This document shows, one piece after another, positions 1 to 47,318 of a stretch of DNA of 64,000 nt (position 1 is the first letter of the stretch; each line of letters opens with the position of its first letter). The translations under genes and the position numbers were made by a program. This DNA comes from an uncultured Gemmatimonadales bacterium (GTDB taxonomy: Bacteria > Gemmatimonadota > Gemmatimonadetes > Gemmatimonadales > GWC2-71-9). The notes below the pieces were generated by a model, which ran no database searches, was not told where the DNA came from, and saw nothing but the letters and a program-made list of their open reading frames with translations. The stretch spans positions 1,045,769-1,109,768 of the forward strand of contig CAWCMH010000001.1 of assembly GCA_963796635.1 (NCBI GenBank). Direction: 5' to 3'.

Positions 1-276
1 ACTCGACCGACCGCGCCAGCGCAAACGAGTTGGGCGGCACCACGCAGACATCCCCTTTGAACTCGACAAAGCTCTTGTCGTCGAAATGCTTCGGGTCGAC
101 GATGGCGGACAGCACGTTGGTGAAGATGCGGAACTCGTCTGCCACCCGCATGTCGTAGCCGTACGACGAGACGCCGTAGGAAATCGCGCCGGCCCGGACC
201 TGGCCGTCGACGAAGGGTTCGATCATGCCATGGTCGCGCACCATCGGCGGATCCAGCGATCGGATTTGATGGACAT
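1..276 (-). pseudogene. dcd: dCTP deaminase, 5' part (3' end lies off-window); one frameshift as sequenced
   Basis: Minus-strand ATG at 276 gives [11 protein letters not shown]. The frame changes near 245; restoring one base in cgccgatgg gives ..RRMVRDHG. It then reads [71 protein letters not shown], the conserved Dcd N-terminal region. Confidence 0.8.
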
Positions 277-20326: not shown

Positions 20327-20770
20327 ATGGCGGGACGATTCACGTTCGCGATGATCAAGCCTGACGCCGTCGAGGGCGGCAAGGCGGGTCGGATTCTGGC
20401 GCACATCGAAGGGGCAGGGTACCAGATCCGTGCGATGCGCCTGGTGCGGCTCACCCGGGGTGAGGCCGAAGCGTTCTACGCGGTGCACCGCGGGCGGCCG
20501 TTCTACGACGAGCTGGTCGGATTCATGAGTTCGGGGCCCACCGTCGCGCTGGCCTTGGAGCGGGCCGATGCGGTCGCCGCATGGCGGTCGACCATCGGGG
20601 CCACCGACCCGGCCGAGGCCGCCGAAGGCACCGTCCGGCGGCTGTTTGCCGAATCCAAGGGCCGCAACGCGGTGCACGGCTCCGACAGCGACGAGAACGC
20701 CATCCGCGAGATCGCTTTCTTCTTTCCCGAGCGTGAGTTAGCCCTGCTGGGCGTCACCACGACGGGTTGA
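20327..20770 (+). CDS. ndk: Nucleoside-diphosphate kinase
   Basis: ATG 20327. ..FAMIKPDAV..RPFYDELVGFMSSGP..NAVHGSDS. Confidence 0.95.
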   Translation: MAGRFTFAMIKPDAVEGGKAGRILAHIEGAGYQIRAMRLVRLTRGEAEAFYAVHRGRPFYDELVGFMSSGPTVALALERADAVAAWRSTIGATDPAEAAEGTVRRLFAESKGRNAVHGSDSDENAIREIAFFFPERELALLGVTTTG

Positions 20771-20804
20771 CCGGAAGGCGCAGAATCGGGTAACTTCGAG
20801 GGCT

Positions 20805-21272
20805 ATGCTACGGTGGTTCCTGCGTGACCTGGAGCGCGGCCCGGTAAGCACCACCGGCCGGGTGGAAGGCCACGATCCGGTATGGGACGACGCGGACGTG
20901 CGGTTTTTGGCGCCGGTCTCGGTCGAGGGCGAGTTGCGGTCGACGACCGACGGGGCATATCGGTGGCGCGGCCACCTGCACGGCCGCATTGCGGGGGATT
21001 GCCGGCGGTGCCTCGCGCCGGTGTCGCTTGATATTGATGACGATGTCGACGTGGTTTTTTCCGGCGATCCGGAGCTGGAAGCGGATCCGGGTGTCTACCC
21101 GATCGACCCGGGCGCCGAGCTCATCGACGTGACGCCGGTGGTCCGTGAAGAGCTGTTGTTGCGGGTATCGGCGTTCCCGCTCTGTCGTCCCGAATGCAGG
21201 GGCTTGTGCGCCGGCTGCGGCGCTGATCTCAACGCTGGTCCGTGCGAGTGTACGGCCGGCTCGAACCACTGA
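20805..21272 (+). CDS. yceD: YceD/DUF177 family protein
   Basis: ATG 20805. 155 aa with a Cys cluster CRPECRGLCAGCGADLNAGPCEC near the C-terminus. Lies directly upstream of rpmF, as in many bacteria. Confidence 0.75.
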   Translation: MLRWFLRDLERGPVSTTGRVEGHDPVWDDADVRFLAPVSVEGELRSTTDGAYRWRGHLHGRIAGDCRRCLAPVSLDIDDDVDVVFSGDPELEADPGVYPIDPGAELIDVTPVVREELLLRVSAFPLCRPECRGLCAGCGADLNAGPCECTAGSNH

Positions 21273-34300: not shown

Positions 34301-35401
34301 ATGCCTTCCTATCTCGTCGAACTCACCACGCCGAACGGGCCGGAGCGCATCCCGTTCACGATCGACCATGACCGCCCGCTCGGTCCGCAGATCACCCAGA
34401 TCATCGAAGAGCTCCGGCAGCGCAACATCGTGCTGCAGGGCGGCCGTGACGACGAACTCGGCGTGTACTGGATGGGCCGGGACCTCGACATGCTACAGGT
34501 CCCGGCGGCGCTCGGCATTAACCCGGGGCGCCCGATCGAACTCCGCATGCGCGTTCGCACCGCGCCCAGGGTCGAAGACACCTCGCTTCCGTGGGGCGTC
34601 AGCGCCGCTGCGATCCTCGGTTACCTCGCCGGGGCGGTTGCGTGGGTGATGATCACGATGCTCTGGATTCCGGGCCGTGTCACGACTGCGTACAACCATC
34701 TGGACCAGGTCACCATGGCACTGGTCGGAGCGGTGGTCGGTGCGTTCACGCTCGGAGGCGCCGCCCTTCGTTCGCGGGGCGTGGTAGCGCTGGGCCTGGT
34801 TGCGGGGGCGTTGCTGGGCGGTCTTGGATCGGGCCTTGGCGCGACCGCGGCGCTGCAAATCGTTGGCGGGACGTCGGTCCGGGGATTCGTCATCGCTCGC
34901 GCGCTCGGATGGGCGCTGGCCGCCGGCACGTGCGCGGTACTCCTGGCGTGCTATCAACTACCGATCACGCTGCGGCGCGTGCTCGAGAGCGCGGTGATCG
35001 GCCTGATCGGCGGCGCGACGAGTGGCGTCATCTTCGCGTTGCCCGGTCCCTCCGATATTTGGCAGGGTGTCGCATGCGCCGTGTTTGGCGTCGCGGTCGG
35101 CGTCGCGGTGGCAGGCCCGTCGCTCTGGGGTGCAGTCGCAGTGGTCGAGCAGCAGCCAGTCGGTCGTCTGGTGCCGGGCATGCTGGGGCTTCGGGAGTGG
35201 GCGATACACGACGACGCATCAATCGACGTCGACGCCGTCACACTCGGGTGTCAAGCGCGTCGCGTCGCCGTGTATCCGCCGCCCGAGGGCGCCTCGTTGG
35301 ATGGGCGCGAACTCCGGCAACCGGCGTTCGTCGACCACACCGCCGTCATTGACGTCTCGGGTCGCTGCTACCACGTGCGACGGCTGTCGAGGGAACCGTG
35401 A
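34301..35401 (+). CDS. Module copy A, gene 2: soluble N-terminal domain (beta-grasp-like?), polytopic Gly/Ala-rich TM region, FHA-like C-terminal domain
   Basis: ATG 34301. MPSYLVELTTPNGPERIPFTIDHDRPLGPQITQIIEELRQ..PIELRMRV, then about 6-7 hydrophobic helices, then ..LREWAIHDDASIDVDAVTLGCQARRVAVYPPPEGASLDGRELRQPAFVDHTAVIDVSGRCYHVRRL. Paralog of 57516-58343. Confidence 0.55.
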   Translation: MPSYLVELTTPNGPERIPFTIDHDRPLGPQITQIIEELRQRNIVLQGGRDDELGVYWMGRDLDMLQVPAALGINPGRPIELRMRVRTAPRVEDTSLPWGVSAAAILGYLAGAVAWVMITMLWIPGRVTTAYNHLDQVTMALVGAVVGAFTLGGAALRSRGVVALGLVAGALLGGLGSGLGATAALQIVGGTSVRGFVIARALGWALAAGTCAVLLACYQLPITLRRVLESAVIGLIGGATSGVIFALPGPSDIWQGVACAVFGVAVGVAVAGPSLWGAVAVVEQQPVGRLVPGMLGLREWAIHDDASIDVDAVTLGCQARRVAVYPPPEGASLDGRELRQPAFVDHTAVIDVSGRCYHVRRLSREP

Positions 35402-37700: not shown

Positions 37701-38099
37701 ATGTTTGCTCCCATCGCGCGCGTCGGCGACATGCACATCTGCCCGATGCAGACCCCGGCCGTGGTGCCGATTCCCCACGTCGGTGGCCCGGTACTGCCGC
37801 CCGGCGCGCCGACCGTCATGGCCGGGGGTTTCCCCGTCGCCGTCGTCGGCGGCATGGCCGTGTGCGTGGGACCACCTGACGTGCTGGTCGTGGGGGCGTT
37901 CACCGTGCTCGCCGAAGGACGTCCGGTGGTGCGTGCCATGGATACGACGGCCCACGGCGGCATGGTGCCGGCGGGTTTCCCGACCGTGATGGTGGGCGAC
38001 TCTGGCGGCGCGGGCAGTCCGCAAGGGGCCACGATGAGCGCCGCGAAGGCGGGCGGATCGGCATTCACTCGCGCCGATTGCGACACGGCAGGGACGTGA
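37701..38099 (+). CDS. PAAR-domain spike-tip protein
   Basis: ATG 37701; the ORF opens at 37623, but the PAAR core starts here. MFAPIARVGDMHICP..HVGGPVLPPGAPTVMAGGFPVAVVGGMAVCVGPPDVLVVGAFTVLAEGRPVVRAMDTTAHGGMV..PTVMVG. Confidence 0.8.
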   Translation: MFAPIARVGDMHICPMQTPAVVPIPHVGGPVLPPGAPTVMAGGFPVAVVGGMAVCVGPPDVLVVGAFTVLAEGRPVVRAMDTTAHGGMVPAGFPTVMVGDSGGAGSPQGATMSAAKAGGSAFTRADCDTAGT

Positions 38100-40671: not shown

Positions 40672-41535
40672 ATGCCCATCGGGACCTGGTGGGGCGGATT
40701 ACTGTGCATCGTGCTCGCGGGTGGGGCCGCTGCGCAGGCGGCGCCCGCCCGCCCGCCGCGAGCGCACATGGCTGACTTGATCGCGCAGGTACGAGCCGCC
40801 GATCCGATGTCGGTGATCACGGCGCGCGCCGACGGCCCCGGCGCGGCCGCCGACCTGGTGCCGTTGACGCACGATGCCGATCCGCAGGTACGCGAAATCG
40901 CACTCCTGTGTCTCGCCGAAACGGGCGGGCCACCGGCCGTACCGGCCTTCCTCGCAAGCCTGGGCGACGGCGAGCCGGTCGTCCGGGCGACCGCGCTGCG
41001 CGGCCTGACCCGCCGGGCTGCGGCGGGGGATGTCCCCGCGATGCTCGCGGCGCTTCGTCGGGTCGAGGACCCCGGGACGCGCGCCGACCTGGTGCTACAG
41101 GTCGCCCGCCTGGGCACCCCGGCCGATCGTCCGGCGCTGGCGGATCGGTGTGCCGGCTGGCACGACGCGGAATCGACCACGGCGTGCGTCACCGCGCTGG
41201 CTTGGCTGGGCGACGACGCCGCCCGCCGCGATTTCACGAATCGGTTGATCGCGTCGCGCGATCGAACCCGTGCGCGCTATCTCGAGTATGCCGGGCAGAT
41301 TCACGCAGCGTGGCTGCTCCCGGCGCTGGCCGCCGTGCTCGCCGACACCGAGCCGGTGCGCTGGATCGGCGTCGACGGTGGACCACCGCCCGAGACACTG
41401 CGCGCGTGCGACGTCGCGGTGAATCTCATCGCGTCGATTACCGGCCATCGCTTCCGTTTTCCGGTCGCACCGGACCGCAACTACTCTGCGGCGGAAATCG
41501 CCGAAGTCCGCACCTTCGTCGCGGGCGCCCACTGA
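40672..41535 (+). CDS. Secreted HEAT-repeat protein; candidate cognate immunity/partner of the metalloprotease
   Basis: ATG 40672 after ggaggagg. Signal peptide WWGGLLCIVLAGGAAAQA. HEAT_2-like repeats DPQVREIALLCLAETGGPPAVPAFLASLGDGEPVVRATALRGL. Confidence 0.55.
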   Translation: MPIGTWWGGLLCIVLAGGAAAQAAPARPPRAHMADLIAQVRAADPMSVITARADGPGAAADLVPLTHDADPQVREIALLCLAETGGPPAVPAFLASLGDGEPVVRATALRGLTRRAAAGDVPAMLAALRRVEDPGTRADLVLQVARLGTPADRPALADRCAGWHDAESTTACVTALAWLGDDAARRDFTNRLIASRDRTRARYLEYAGQIHAAWLLPALAAVLADTEPVRWIGVDGGPPPETLRACDVAVNLIASITGHRFRFPVAPDRNYSAAEIAEVRTFVAGAH

Positions 41536-42167
41536 TGCCGCGCTATGTCGTCGTGCAAGGGGACTATCTCGCGACGATCGCGCAGGCGTTCGGCTTCGCC
41601 GATTACCGCACCATCTGGAATGATCCCGGCAATCAGGGCTTGCGCGCGCAGGGACGCACGCCCGACCTGCTGTACCCGGGCGACGCGCTCACAATTCCCG
41701 ATCGGTCGGCGGGCCAGGCGACCGGCGCCACCGGTCGGATGCACCAGTTCACCGCGCCCGCTCCCGGCCCGGTCAAGTTGCGGCTTGCGCTCCGCACCGC
41801 CGATGACCGCCCGCTCACCGGGCTTGCGTGCACGATCGCCGCCACCAACGTCCCGGCCGTGCAGCGGACCACTGATGGCAACGGTCACATCGAGTACGAC
41901 ATGGCCCCCGACGTTGACCGGCTGTACGTCGTGGCGACGGGGCACCAATGGGATATCGGTGTCGGGCACCTTGATCCGGTGAGCGAAGTCTCGGGGTGGC
42001 GCGAGCGCTTGAACAATCTGGGATATCAGGCAGGAGAATCGTCCGATCCGGATGCACTGGAGCTGCGGTCTGCCGTCGAGGAATTCCAGTGCGATCACGG
42101 GCTGCGAGTCGACGGCATCGCCGGGCCCGCCACGCAAAAGAAGCTCACCGAGGTGTACGGATGTTAG
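41535..42167 (+). CDS. LysM plus PG_binding_1 domain protein, no signal peptide
   Basis: ATG 41535 (TGATG overlap). N-terminal YVVVQGDYLATIAQAFGFADYRTIWNDPGN..LYPGDALTIP (LysM). C-terminal GWRERLNNLGYQAG..LRSAVEEFQCDHGLRVDGIAGPATQKKL. Confidence 0.7.
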   Translation: MPRYVVVQGDYLATIAQAFGFADYRTIWNDPGNQGLRAQGRTPDLLYPGDALTIPDRSAGQATGATGRMHQFTAPAPGPVKLRLALRTADDRPLTGLACTIAATNVPAVQRTTDGNGHIEYDMAPDVDRLYVVATGHQWDIGVGHLDPVSEVSGWRERLNNLGYQAGESSDPDALELRSAVEEFQCDHGLRVDGIAGPATQKKLTEVYGC

Positions 42168-42188
42168 CGGCGGCAAACGACCTGCCCG

Positions 42189-42217
42189 TTGACCGGTCAG
42201 CGGGGTAGCCGTAGACT
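42189..42217 (+). promoter_or_regulatory. Candidate sigma70-type promoter of the T6SS core operon
   Basis: TTGACC (42189-42194), 17 nt spacer, TAGACT (42212-42217). The -35 element is embedded in the perfect 10-bp palindrome TGACCGGTCA (42190-42199). About 140 nt upstream of the tssB ATG. Confidence 0.35.
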
Positions 42218-42230
42218 CCACCCGATCCAC

Positions 42231-42307
42231 GACGCGATGCGGACCCGATGTACCCCCCGGTGGCGACGCGATGCGCCTGACGCGCGCCGGCCGGGCGACG
42301 CGATACG
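42231..42307 (+). repeat. Three direct repeats GACGCGAT(G/A)CG spaced 34 and 32 bp apart in the tssB leader
   Basis: gacgcgatgcg at 42231-42241 and 42265-42275; gacgcgatacg at 42297-42307. Copies 2 and 3 extend to ggcgacgcgat(g/a)cgcc. Confidence 0.6.
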
Positions 42308-42360
42308 CCGCCGCGGGCATTCCTGTGTACCTGTGGTGCGACCCGTAAGGAGACTTCGAG

Positions 42361-42831
42361 ATGCCAGTCGTCAAGGTGACCCGCGCCGGCGTGCGTGCCG
42401 CGCCCCGCGAGGTGCCGACCGAGACCACCACCACCATCCTGCCGATGACCTTCGACCGCGTGGGGGAGGAATGTCAGGAGGATGAGGACCCGACCAAGGT
42501 CTCCTCGCTGGGCGAGGCGTTCGAGAAGTTTGCCCCCAAGCTCGACTTCAAGACGAATGTCGGCGAGGAAGGGACGGAGTTCGTCGCCGAACTCGACTTC
42601 CGGAGCCTCAAGGATTTCGATCCCAAGCAGATCCGGTCGCGCGCGCCGGGCAAGCGCAACGACATCGCCGACCTGCAGAGTCAGATCGATCTCCTCCACC
42701 GGATGCGCGAACGCTTCACCCTGCTGGCGGTGAAGAAGGCCTGGGAGAACGAAACGCAGCGCCAGGAGATCATCGGGGCGCTCGGCGAGTTGCAGGCCCA
42801 GCTCAAGCAGATTGCCGGAGGTGCGGCGTGA
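42361..42831 (+). CDS. tssB: T6SS contractile sheath small subunit TssB (VipA-like)
   Basis: ATG 42361 after taaggagac. 156 aa. ..AFEKFAPKLDFKTNV..FVAELDFRSLKDFDPKQI..LQSQIDLLHRMRERF resembles the TssB core. GTGA overlap into tssC. Confidence 0.75.
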   Translation: MPVVKVTRAGVRAAPREVPTETTTTILPMTFDRVGEECQEDEDPTKVSSLGEAFEKFAPKLDFKTNVGEEGTEFVAELDFRSLKDFDPKQIRSRAPGKRNDIADLQSQIDLLHRMRERFTLLAVKKAWENETQRQEIIGALGELQAQLKQIAGGAA

Positions 42832-44174
42832 GCGACAAGGTCATGGTCAAGTCGACCCAGGACATCATCGGGACGCGCACGGCCGCGAAGGCGATCGAGG
42901 AAATCTTCAACGTCATCCATCCGGCGCCGCCCAAGACGGCATTGCGCGACATCTTCACCGCCGAAAGCGCGTCGCAGTTCCAGGACCGCATTGCCAACTT
43001 CGCGGCATTGCTGTCCGCCACCGACAGTTACGCGCAGGCGCTCAAGAAACTGGACGACGCCATTGCGGCCGCCGAGAAGACGCGCGACGCGGTGTTGTCG
43101 CAGCTGTACGAGAAGATCCGTCCGATCGAGCGCAGCTATCGGCAGCTGCAGCTGTTCTTCGAGAATGCGGAGGTGCGCGACGGCGTGCAGCGCCCGCCGG
43201 TCGAGTTCTTCATCTTCAACGCCGACACCAAGGCGATCACCAAGGACACCGATTCGGCGACCATTGTCGCGCTCGATGAATTCGTCCAGGGGCGCAACGA
43301 TTCGTTCAACTTCCGCCAGTTCATCTGCAACCTGGTGGTGCCAGGCTACGTGCCGGACAACGTCCGCAAGCGCCTGGAAGACATGGCCAACCAGTGGGGC
43401 ATGCTGCTGATCGGGGACCTCAAGGACGAGAAGAACTTCCGCTCCTTGAGCGACCAGTTCCGCACCGATGGCGGCGCGTACGAATTCCTCAAGCGGCCCG
43501 AGGACAAGGCCGCGGCGGATGTCGTCGTCGCCGGCTTCGTCAAGCTGCGCGACAAGCACTGGTTCGAGCAGGCGGACGGCGACAGCGACGACGCCGACCT
43601 CTACGGTCCGGCGTCGATGCTCTTTGCCGGATCGCTGGCGCGCACCGACCGGACCACCGGCGGGGGCATCGCGCAGGGACCGGTGGGCATGATCTTCGGC
43701 AAGATCCGCGGCGTCGACAAGTCGCGCATCGAGCCGCGCATCTCGCAGATGGAGCACCTGTCGATGGAACGGCAGATCGTGACCATCATCCGCAACGAGG
43801 ACAACGATCTCTGCTTCGTCGGGTCACGGTCCCAGGCCGAAGATCCCAAGGGTGTGCTCAAGTTCTTCACGTCGTATCGCGTGTTGCGGTACCTCGAACG
43901 GCGCATCGCGGTCTACCTCCGCCGCGTCGCGGAACAGCGCCTGACCCGCGACCTGGTCAAGGACCAGGTGCGCAATCCGATCGAGGACTTCCTCGAAGAC
44001 GAGAAGAAGAAGGGCACCATCTACAACTATTCCCTCGACGTCGACATGGACGAGGACAAGTTCGCGATGGGGGTGCTCGATATCGGGCTCGAGGTCCTGC
44101 CGGTGGGCCCGGCCGAGACGTTCAACCTGAAGATCGACACGCCGAACTTCTCCAAGGCGAAGACCGAAGGATGA
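42828..44174 (+). CDS. tssC: T6SS contractile sheath large subunit TssC (VipB-like), short form (448 aa)
   Basis: GTG 42828. Position directly after tssB. The size and C-terminal region (..CFVGSRSQAEDPKGVLKFFTSYRVLRYLERRIAVYLRR..) are consistent with TssC. Family call by eye. Confidence 0.7.
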   Translation: MSDKVMVKSTQDIIGTRTAAKAIEEIFNVIHPAPPKTALRDIFTAESASQFQDRIANFAALLSATDSYAQALKKLDDAIAAAEKTRDAVLSQLYEKIRPIERSYRQLQLFFENAEVRDGVQRPPVEFFIFNADTKAITKDTDSATIVALDEFVQGRNDSFNFRQFICNLVVPGYVPDNVRKRLEDMANQWGMLLIGDLKDEKNFRSLSDQFRTDGGAYEFLKRPEDKAAADVVVAGFVKLRDKHWFEQADGDSDDADLYGPASMLFAGSLARTDRTTGGGIAQGPVGMIFGKIRGVDKSRIEPRISQMEHLSMERQIVTIIRNEDNDLCFVGSRSQAEDPKGVLKFFTSYRVLRYLERRIAVYLRRVAEQRLTRDLVKDQVRNPIEDFLEDEKKKGTIYNYSLDVDMDEDKFAMGVLDIGLEVLPVGPAETFNLKIDTPNFSKAKTEG

Positions 44175-45404: not shown

Positions 45405-47318
45405 GTGAGCGTGTCGATCGTCGCGAGTCTGGGGGCCGGACATCGTACGCTCCAGAACCGGGAAATCCAGCATCTCGAGGTCAGCTCACGCCTCGGCGAG
45501 CCGCATCACTGCCTGATCCGTTTCGACCTCGACACCAGTTCCGGCGATTGCCTGCAGGACTTCCAGGGCGACCTCGCGGTCAATCTCGCCGACACCGAAT
45601 CGGGCGAGCAGGTCGCGCTGTTCAAGGGGATCATGACCGGCGGGACGCAGGATCACCAGCTCGACGGCGGATCGCGCTTCGAAATCCACGCCGACAGCCC
45701 GCTGCTGCTCGCCATGAGTCATCACGAATCCGCCACCAAATTTTCCACGCCATGGGACGTGGCCGCGTCCTCGTTGGGGCTCTCGGTGATCGGGGCACCG
45801 CGGTACAAGGTCCCGGTCGGCGGGTACGCGATGTTCGGCCAGACGCGGCTCGAGTTCGTGCAACGCATGGCCGATGACGCGGGGTTCTTCGTGATCGAGC
45901 GCGATGGCGCCGTGCAGTTGCGCTCCGAGTTCGACGATGCGGCGCGCTGCACCCTGACCTGGGGCGTCGATCTGCTCGCGCTCCGCGCGGAAAGCAGCCT
46001 GCGCAATCACCGCTTCCGCGGCGGCGTCTACGAGGAGAAGGCGAAAGCGGATTACCGGTTCCGCGACCAACGGCGCGATCCCGTCACCACGGGCGCCCTC
46101 AAGCTCACCACCGCCGTCAAGAACGCCGCGCCATCATTCGGCGACGCCACCGATGCCAACGTGGTGATGTCCGATTCGCGGGCCACCACGCGCGACGTGT
46201 TCCGCGACGCGCTGCTGCGCGAGAGTGAGCGCGCCCTCGGGGCCGCGGTGCTGGTGGCCGGCGAGTCGCGCAACATTCACGTGGCTCTCGGCAGCACGGT
46301 GCAGGTCGACGACGGTGCTTCCGCCAAGCTGACCGGATCCACCGGCGTGTTCGGGATCATCGAACTCCGCCACGTGTGGGATTCGGCCGAGTACCGGAAC
46401 GCGTTCACCGGGTCGCCGTGGAAGAATTTCAGCAACGCCATCCGCCCGCCGCTCGTTCCGGTACCCGGGCCGTTCCTCGCCGAGGCGCTGCAGACCGACC
46501 CCGCGGTCGTCGCCAAGGGCTTTCTCCACGTGCGGTTGGCTCACATGGACCGCGACGGCGAAAGTTTCCAGTTCGCGCGGCTGGTCGCGCCGTTCGGCGG
46601 CAATGGTCGCGGCGTCGTGTTCGTGCCCGAGCCCGGGGACGAAGTGCTGGTCGACTTTCTCCAGGGCGACCCCGAACACGCGATCGTGGTCGGCAGCCTG
46701 TGGAACGGCAAGGATGTGTGTCCCGGCCAGGAGCCAAAGCAGATCGTCACGAAGAGCGGCAACGTCCTGGCGCTGCACGACGACGGCTGGATCGAGCTGT
46801 ACACCCCCAAGGGGAAGTGCATGCTGCAGATGAGCAGCACGTCGAGCGGTACGCCGCGCGTGACGTTGCATTCCGAGGGCGACCTGGTGCTCGAGGCCAA
46901 GGGACAGATCCAGCTGCGTGGGGCGTCCTTGCACGAAGCCATCGGCGGCGGCGTCAAGCGGGACATCACCGGTGACGAAGTGGTCAAGATCGGTGGGTCG
47001 ATGACGCACGAAGCCACCGGACTGATGAAGCACAAGGGCGGCACCGGGTCGATCGTCGACGGGGCCGGGTCGACCGTGGCGCTGTCGGCTGACTCCGCCC
47101 GCATGACATCGCCGATGAGCGTGGTCGAGGGGACCGCCGCAGCGATCGTCTCGGCGGCCATGGTCGAGCTCAATCCTCCCGCGGTCCCGCCCGCGGTACC
47201 GGTCGTGGAGATTCCCGCCCAGGTACCCGACGCACTCGCCACCACGTGGAAGGAGCGGGGCGTACCGCCGGAGACGCCGCTGTTCGACACCGGCCAGGAT
47301 TCCGGGCCGGGCGCCTAG
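45405..47318 (+). CDS. vgrG: VgrG/TssI spike protein
   Basis: GTG 45405 after aggag. 637 aa. gp5 OB-fold block FARLVAPFGGNGRGVVFVPEPGDEVLVDFLQGDPEHAIVVGSLWNG. The N-terminal gp27-like part includes FVQRMADDAGFFVIERDG. A Gly-rich beta-helical tail follows. Confidence 0.85.
   Translation: MSVSIVASLGAGHRTLQNREIQHLEVSSRLGEPHHCLIRFDLDTSSGDCLQDFQGDLAVNLADTESGEQVALFKGIMTGGTQDHQLDGGSRFEIHADSPLLLAMSHHESATKFSTPWDVAASSLGLSVIGAPRYKVPVGGYAMFGQTRLEFVQRMADDAGFFVIERDGAVQLRSEFDDAARCTLTWGVDLLALRAESSLRNHRFRGGVYEEKAKADYRFRDQRRDPVTTGALKLTTAVKNAAPSFGDATDANVVMSDSRATTRDVFRDALLRESERALGAAVLVAGESRNIHVALGSTVQVDDGASAKLTGSTGVFGIIELRHVWDSAEYRNAFTGSPWKNFSNAIRPPLVPVPGPFLAEALQTDPAVVAKGFLHVRLAHMDRDGESFQFARLVAPFGGNGRGVVFVPEPGDEVLVDFLQGDPEHAIVVGSLWNGKDVCPGQEPKQIVTKSGNVLALHDDGWIELYTPKGKCMLQMSSTSSGTPRVTLHSEGDLVLEAKGQIQLRGASLHEAIGGGVKRDITGDEVVKIGGSMTHEATGLMKHKGGTGSIVDGAGSTVALSADSARMTSPMSVVEGTAAAIVSAAMVELNPPAVPPAVPVVEIPAQVPDALATTWKERGVPPETPLFDTGQDSGPGA

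Follow-up and report, generated by a model that had tools for sequence, protein, structure and literature searches.

A conserved putative promoter and a variable leader with young direct repeats precede the T6SS sheath genes of a Gemmatimonadales bacterium

Introduction

In model bacteria, control of T6SS clusters is often exerted at the first sheath gene. The sci1 promoter of EAEC carries Fur boxes that overlap Dam GATC sites (PMC3145626), and in Vibrio cholerae the Qrr sRNAs pair with the vca0107 (vipA/tssB) mRNA (PMC10335731). In an uncultured Gemmatimonadales bacterium, the gap in front of tssB contains a promoter-like element, a palindrome, and three direct repeats, and the original prediction for this DNA took the repeats to be an operator array for a repressor or activator, or else an RNA-level element. 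Here, we ask whether the gap upstream of tssB is such a regulatory array or a promoter followed by a leader that varies with little constraint. We examined the gap within the whole stretch of DNA available to us (64,000 nt; referred to as the window), which has a high GC content of about 65 to 70%, and we compared it with tssB loci from related genomes.

Results

The gap separates two blocks of T6SS genes (Table 1). The gene on its 5' side, whose start we set by aligning the orthologue from the related locus L049, closes the preceding T6SS-associated block, and its start overlaps the stop codon of a HEAT-repeat gene. On the 3' side, the product of tssB has 304 homologues, several of which carry the name "contractile sheath small subunit" or ImpB in NCBI and JGI annotations, and one member of the protein cluster (P0122) is identical to the TssB of the window. 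Almost all of these homologues come from Gemmatimonadales, Gemmatimonadaceae, and Longimicrobium MAGs, and their N terminus, MPVVKVTRAG, is invariant. The start of tssC overlaps the stop of tssB, and tssC is followed by small ORFs, a VgrG-like gene (45405 to 47318), a TssG-like gene, ClpV, FHA-domain proteins, and a Ser/Thr kinase. We read the sheath operon as tssB-tssC-(hcp-like)-vgrG and onward. Housekeeping genes (sucCD, ndk, yceD, plsX, fabH, and fabF) lie upstream of the T6SS block.

The T6SS cluster as a whole (window positions 35398 to 61280) is of a divergent type. Its TssC matches PF17541 and not the usual VipB models, and several core genes have no Pfam match. The cluster also includes two Ser/Thr kinases, at least three FHA-domain proteins, Sel1-repeat proteins, and VWA, DUF4123, and PAAR genes. 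Members of this TssB family occur in Gemmatimonadota, and relatives with ∼52% identity are present in Acidobacteriota MAGs (L040 to L044).

Table 1. Coordinates of features in and around the gap upstream of tssB (window positions)
Feature	Position	Strand	Remarks
LysM-like N terminus and PG_binding_1 C terminus gene	41535..42167	+	210 aa; Pfam PG_binding_1, E = 9.7e-11
Intergenic gap	42168-42360		193 nt, between the upstream TAG (42165-42167) and the tssB ATG (42361)
Near-palindrome CCCGTTGACCGGTCAGCGGG	42185..42204	.	Perfect core TGACCGGTCA at 42190-42199; overlaps the -35
-35 hexamer TTGACC	42189..42194	+	Identical in 12/12 orthologous loci and L175
-10 hexamer TAGACT	42212..42217	+	Inside the conserved CGTAGACTCCA block
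Predicted transcription start	42224..42225	+	Usual distance of ~7 nt after the -10
Repeat copy 1, CGACGCGATGCG	42230..42241	+	Weaker look-alike GACCCGATG next to it, 42242-42250
Repeat copy 2, GGCGACGCGATGCGCC	42262..42277	+	In ~17-21 nt that are extra relative to L049 and L175
Repeat copy 3, GGCGACGCGATACGCC	42294..42309	+
Conserved 3' end of the leader with the Shine-Dalgarno sequence	42316..42360	+	Almost unchanged in L049 and L175
tssB, T6SS sheath small subunit	42361..42831	+	156 aa; Pfam T6SS_VipA 21.7 bits, under the 24-bit cut-off
tssC, sheath large subunit	42828..44174	+	448 aa; Pfam PF17541 TssC, E = 2.8e-18

Orthologous tssB loci for comparison were taken from GTDB genomes and from contigs encoding the closest TssB proteins. 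For the promoter, we compared 13 loci: 12 from the subclade, with TssB proteins that were 86 to 100% identical, and L175. Nucleotide identity to the window was ∼80% for L049, 68 to 78% for L051, and 85% for L175. One further locus, L174, comes from an independent assembly of the same species (Logan assembly ERR11594399) and shares 99.955% identity with the window across 11 kb. Its leader was 100% identical to that of the window, repeats included, indicating that the repeats are not an assembly artifact.

A consensus scan of positions 41000 to 43500 found TTGACC-17-TAGACT as the sole sigma-70-like match, with 0.2 matches expected from shuffled sequences. The two hexamers are separated by 17 nt, match the consensus at 9 of 12 positions, and lie exactly where the original prediction had put them. 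In all 12 subclade loci, the last TTGAC[CG]-N16-18-TAnnnT before tssB has TTGACC, a spacer of exactly 17 nt, and a -10 element of the form TA(G/A/T)(A/G/C)CT; the pattern TTGACC-17-TAnnCT is kept in these 12 loci and in L175. The -10 element of the related loci is usually embedded in a CGTAGACT block, and the promoter of L175 is arranged in the same way. Because flanking identity is only ∼68 to 85%, the hexamers and their spacing stand out as a footprint. We therefore read positions 42189 to 42217 as a predicted sigma-70-type promoter, a call that this comparative footprint strongly supports.

Compared with the sigma-70/sigma-A canon (TTGACA-17-TATAAT), the -35 element agrees at five of six positions and the -10 element at four of six, including the critical A2 and T6, and the 17-nt spacer is optimal. 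The element further resembles the canon in being conserved over orthologous loci and in having a similar counterpart before a housekeeping operon in the same window, but it differs in that the -10 hexamer of this clade, TAGACT, is GC-richer than TATAAT. Only two other TTGACN-16..18-TAnnnT sites occur in the 64 kb, and one of them is directly 5' of yceD-plsX-fabH. This site, TTGACC-18-TAACTT at window positions 20767 to 20796, lies between ndk (20327 to 20770) and yceD (20805 to 21272), ahead of plsX-fabH, and is likely a housekeeping promoter of the same type as that of tssB. A promoter-like site in this position fits a housekeeping sigma factor, which we infer to act at the tssB promoter as well.

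L175 becomes homologous to the window at 42188, a single base ahead of the -35 element, and the gene content upstream of that point differs. This edge suggests that promoter and tssB move together as one unit. The sequence before the promoter in L175 (positions 1 to 310) resembles the PAAR-gene region of the window (37869 to 37999; 75% identity), and L175 is without the four genes that separate PAAR from tssB in the window (OmpA/PG-binding, a 382-aa protein, HEAT, and LysM/PG-binding). This four-gene stretch appears to be an accessory block that was inserted or deleted at the promoter boundary.

Five of the related loci (L001, L002, L006, L007, and L053) are arranged differently upstream. Their upstream gene is divergent, with back-to-back promoters ∼20 to 60 nt upstream of the tssB -35 element, and GGTCAAC sits 14 to 18 nt upstream of GTTGACC as the -35 of an opposite-strand TTGACC-16-TAGCTT promoter. 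In the window, the upstream gene is co-directional, and there is no second, mirror-image promoter.

The perfect palindrome TGACCGGTCA that had been reported over the -35 element was found at the positions given for it, and the core extends to CCCGTTGACCG/CGGTCAGCGGG with 91% complementarity. Such a palindrome could be bound as an operator by a dimeric repressor in competition with RNA polymerase. It is perfect over 10 bp and has one mismatch over 20 bp, and all 10 core positions are retained in L049/L050 although the overall identity of that lineage is ∼80%. L049/L050, the closest sister lineage, is also the only one to keep the core, which is broken in L175 (TTGACCGTTC) and in L051 and absent from L001 to L007; the palindrome is thus not a conserved operator. 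Moreover, one of its halves is the conserved -35 hexamer itself, and the half in the spacer, GGTCA, reads GTTCC in L175 and CGTCC in L051 and is unrelated in L001 to L007 (GCCAA, GCCCC, and others). The inverted GGTCAAC found nearby in relatives is explained by the opposite-strand promoter described above. We consider the palindrome mostly coincidental; a repressor operator at this position, which would be clade specific, is improbable.

With a start near 42224, the predicted 5' untranslated region (UTR) is ∼136 nt long. From locus to locus among the 12, 68 to 188 nt separate the -10 element from the ATG. The leader hardly differs among the window, L049, and L175 over its first ∼10 nt and its last ∼45 nt (GTGCGACCCGTAAGGAGACTTCGAG), but its middle gave no alignment of the window with L049, L175, or L051. 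The near-consensus Shine-Dalgarno sequence of the original prediction, AGGAG at 42348 to 42352, is present and conserved; its distance from the ATG is 8 nt and not 7, which is a trivial difference. Most related loci have GGAG or GAGGAG. A TAA at 42346 to 42348, in frame with tssB, overlaps the Shine-Dalgarno sequence.

Upstream of tssB in the window, its frame stays open over ∼45 codons, and only this TAA closes it. At L053 (L053:3001-3558, P0003), the JGI annotation describes a 185-aa "ImpB" whose start is placed 29 codons upstream, in the leader. The conserved MPVVKV start and the Shine-Dalgarno sequence show that this protein is in fact 156 aa long and its start codon misannotated. We also noted that the leader segment TGACGCGCGCCGGC (42278 to 42291) recurs with 13 of 14 matches at 42377 to 42390, in the first tssB codons, and that positions 42305 to 42317 are 92% complementary to 42380 to 42392 (tssB codons 7 to 11). 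Because the DNA is GC-rich and the leader folds with no excess stability, we treated both as chance.

The three repeat copies reported for the leader are real: GACGCGATGCG occurs at 42231 and 42265 and GACGCGATACG at 42297, with spacings of 34 and 32 nt. As 12-mers (CGACGCGATRCG), the copies begin at 42230, 42264, and 42296 and match at 12/12, 12/12, and 11/12 positions, and copies 2 and 3 agree at 15 of 16 positions as GGCGACGCGATRCGCC (at 42262 and 42294). The 32- to 34-nt units are alike only in this 12- to 16-nt core. Their placement within the transcribed leader, at about +7 to +85, holds if transcription starts ∼7 nt after the -10 element, as predicted. The claim that they sit on the same face of the DNA holds in part: the spacings were given correctly, but they amount to 3.24 and 3.05 helical turns, so that the shared face is approximate only.

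Of 300 order-3 Markov simulations of 64 kb, 4 (∼1%) produced a triple in which 11 or more of the 12 columns were identical, and apart from the repeats the window has no exact 9-mer triple within 120 nt. The repeats are therefore unlikely to be pure chance in the window (roughly 1%). It is important to note that a rate of ∼1% per 64-kb window corresponds to about one such triple expected by chance per 5-Mb genome. Beyond the leader, the motif showed no sign of a regulon in the window. Exact 11-mer matches in the 64 kb were limited to the three leader copies, and the matches with one mismatch (13 others) or with up to three mismatches to the 16-mer (14 others) were at the level of shuffled sequence. 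No enrichment of the motif was seen in the remainder of the 64 kb or in its other T6SS intergenic regions, so the wider search suggested along with the operator idea, over the 64 kb covered, returned degenerate copies at chance frequency.

We also looked for a source of the repeats. A blastn-short search of the leader against the window and 53 related loci revealed no donor copy and no dispersed family. A tandem array or an origin by tandem duplication was considered and set aside; TRF reported nothing at a score of 30 or above, and the spacers are unrelated. A scan of metagenomes for two motif copies 14 to 30 nt apart gave at least 120 matches. Those that we read were all unrelated tandem repeats or coding D-A-M-R repeats, with no tssB leader among them, and the scan is uninformative about a regulon.

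The repeats were absent from the leaders of the three nearest lineages (L049/L050, L175, and L051) and from those of L052, L053, and L001 to L007, and none of 53 related loci had the motif in the leader. No direct repeats of their own were found in ten related leaders. This absence from all 13 related leaders indicates that the repeats are recent and confined to one species. Partial resemblances were found at two of the three positions. Where the window has copy 1, L175 has AGACGAGATCCG (9/12 matches) and L049 has AGACGAGCTCCG (8/12), and near copy 3, L175 has TCGACGCACCACGCC, which is similar at ∼11 of 15 positions.

A different sequence recurs in other leaders of the comparison. Some 60 to 70 nt after the -10 element, L003, L004, L005, and L052 have a common block, GGAC(G/A)NC(C/T)GATGC(G/A/C)C. 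One form of it, GGACGTCCGATGCGCC (L003 and L005), partly resembles the window repeat, with CGATGCGCC identical. We examined this block as a candidate conserved leader element (CGATGC / GGAC-N5-GATGC) and did not retain it; its enrichment was marginal (P of about 0.03), post hoc, and drawn from loci that are not phylogenetically independent.

The leader was also analyzed as RNA. Its minimum free energy (-58.8 kcal/mol) was a little less favorable than in dinucleotide shuffles (z = +1.0), and folding z scores for 12 related leaders ranged from -1.8 to +1.5. Folding of the leader RNA, which had been suggested as a check, thus gave no stability above that of shuffled sequences. RNAalifold on four leaders, which are few and poorly alignable, found no compensatory pairs and a positive covariation term. 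Rfam returned no matches for the whole window at the gathering threshold and none at E of ≤1 for positions 42100 to 42500. The AUG of copy 2 (42271) opens a reading frame that runs to the TAA overlapping the Shine-Dalgarno sequence. We rejected an upstream ORF or leader peptide as a candidate; although open in the window, the frame encodes a peptide that L049 and L051 do not conserve.

Discussion

On balance, we think that the interval upstream of tssB probably consists of a sigma-70-type promoter, a long and mostly unconstrained 5' UTR, and a strong Shine-Dalgarno sequence, with the repeats as a young product of sequence turnover that has no demonstrated role. RNA polymerase carrying the housekeeping sigma factor would recognize TTGACC-17-TAGACT and begin transcription near 42224, producing a leader of ∼136 nt. 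The conserved last ∼45 nt, with AGGAG, would then drive the translation of tssB, and the middle of the leader would be unconstrained and turn over rapidly by insertions and deletions. The GACGCGATRCG copies lie within this variable middle and are recent and confined to this species: copies 1 and 3 at positions where sister lineages already resemble the motif and copy 2 in an insertion of ∼20 nt. They are probably a by-product of local turnover in GC-rich DNA, for example by short duplication or template switching, rather than a regulatory device that has been conserved. From their being recent and unconserved, we infer that the repeats are non-functional.

Several observations do not sit easily with a by-product. 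Copies that match at 12/12, 12/12, and 11/12 positions and are set between unrelated spacers are unlike the outcome of simple tandem duplication, and a comparable triple arises in only ∼1% of simulated 64-kb sequences. Copies 1 and 3 appear to have moved toward the motif, which selection for a binding site or homogenization among copies could explain, and since the nearest relatives are only ∼80 to 85% identical, absence from them is compatible with a young, species-specific function. Because the form of the repeats fits a newly selected binding-site array or short-tract homogenization as well, we hold our preferred reading with no more than moderate confidence. That the GACGCGATRCG sites are a newly evolved array for a species-specific operator or RNA-protein interaction, sharpened from look-alikes by point changes and completed by the 20-nt insertion, seems to us rather unlikely. 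As DNA operators of a species-specific transcription factor, the sites would be centered near +13, +47, and +79, where a bound and possibly oligomerizing repressor could block elongation or escape from the open complex, or where an activator could bind. The repeats are indeed non-random, their spacing of 32 to 34 bp is close to three helical turns, copy 1 overlaps the initially transcribed region immediately after a well-supported promoter, and copies 1 and 3 look sharpened toward a common motif relative to L175 and L049. Against this, none of the 13 related leaders keeps the repeats or has alternative ones, motif copies in the 64 kb do not exceed chance, the phasing is loose (34 bp being 3.24 turns), and Pfam searches identified no DNA-binding or helix-turn-helix domain among the T6SS cluster genes tested. 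We regard this version as unlikely.

An action of the repeats in the mRNA, as sites for an RNA-binding protein or sRNA, as part of a structured leader, or through upstream AUGs that modulate tssB translation, strikes us as very doubtful. The repeats do lie inside the predicted 5' UTR, copies 1 and 2 contain AUG, the frame opened by copy 2 stops at the Shine-Dalgarno sequence of tssB, and T6SS leaders are sRNA targets elsewhere, as with Qrr on vca0107 (PMC10335731). Yet the leader folds no better than shuffled sequence, as do its relatives, RNAalifold and Rfam gave neither compensatory pairs nor a family at E of ≤1, the peptide of the upstream frame is unconserved in L049 and L051, and copy 3 has AUA. 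The original proposal of an operator array or RNA element is unsupported on several counts: the repeats are missing in relatives, the motif occurs at chance level in the rest of the window, and there is no fold better than shuffles, covariation, or Rfam match and no Pfam DNA-binding protein among the cluster genes tested.

The likeness of this locus to EAEC sci1 and V. cholerae vca0107 is one of position only, that is, a cis region and a long leader before the first sheath gene, with repeated sites in or just after the promoter. The sites in those two systems follow the consensus of a known regulator and were tested experimentally, whereas the motif of the window matches no identifiable regulator and is unconserved. 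Operator arrays and iterons share with the window three near-identical direct repeats of 12 to 16 nt with unrelated spacers and a roughly constant spacing. The window repeats differ from them in being unconserved, in having no cognate binding protein nearby and no further copies in the 64 kb, and in their spacing of 32 to 34 bp, which is atypical of known iteron or response-regulator arrays.

The PpkA/Fha pathway provides post-translational control of T6SS. The Ser/Thr kinases and FHA-domain proteins in the cluster point to control of this kind, which is the more likely mode of T6SS regulation here.

If the repeats were a newly evolved regulatory array, the T6SS sheath operon of this species would be under a regulator that is absent from its sister species, and a cis-regulatory gain would have been caught in the act. 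The repeats matter only in the case of such a recent gain, and no finding here argues for one. For our preferred reading, in which a promoter is followed by a variable leader, the T6SS sheath operons of this group carry long leaders that can vary freely. To our knowledge, neither the sigma factor nor the transcription start site has been determined experimentally for the T6SS of any member of the Gemmatimonadota, and we know of almost no experimental promoter data for the phylum. The gain from this locus is modest: a comparatively validated, predicted promoter consensus, TTGACC-17-TAGACT, and a putative operon start for the T6SS sheath genes of the Gemmatimonadota.
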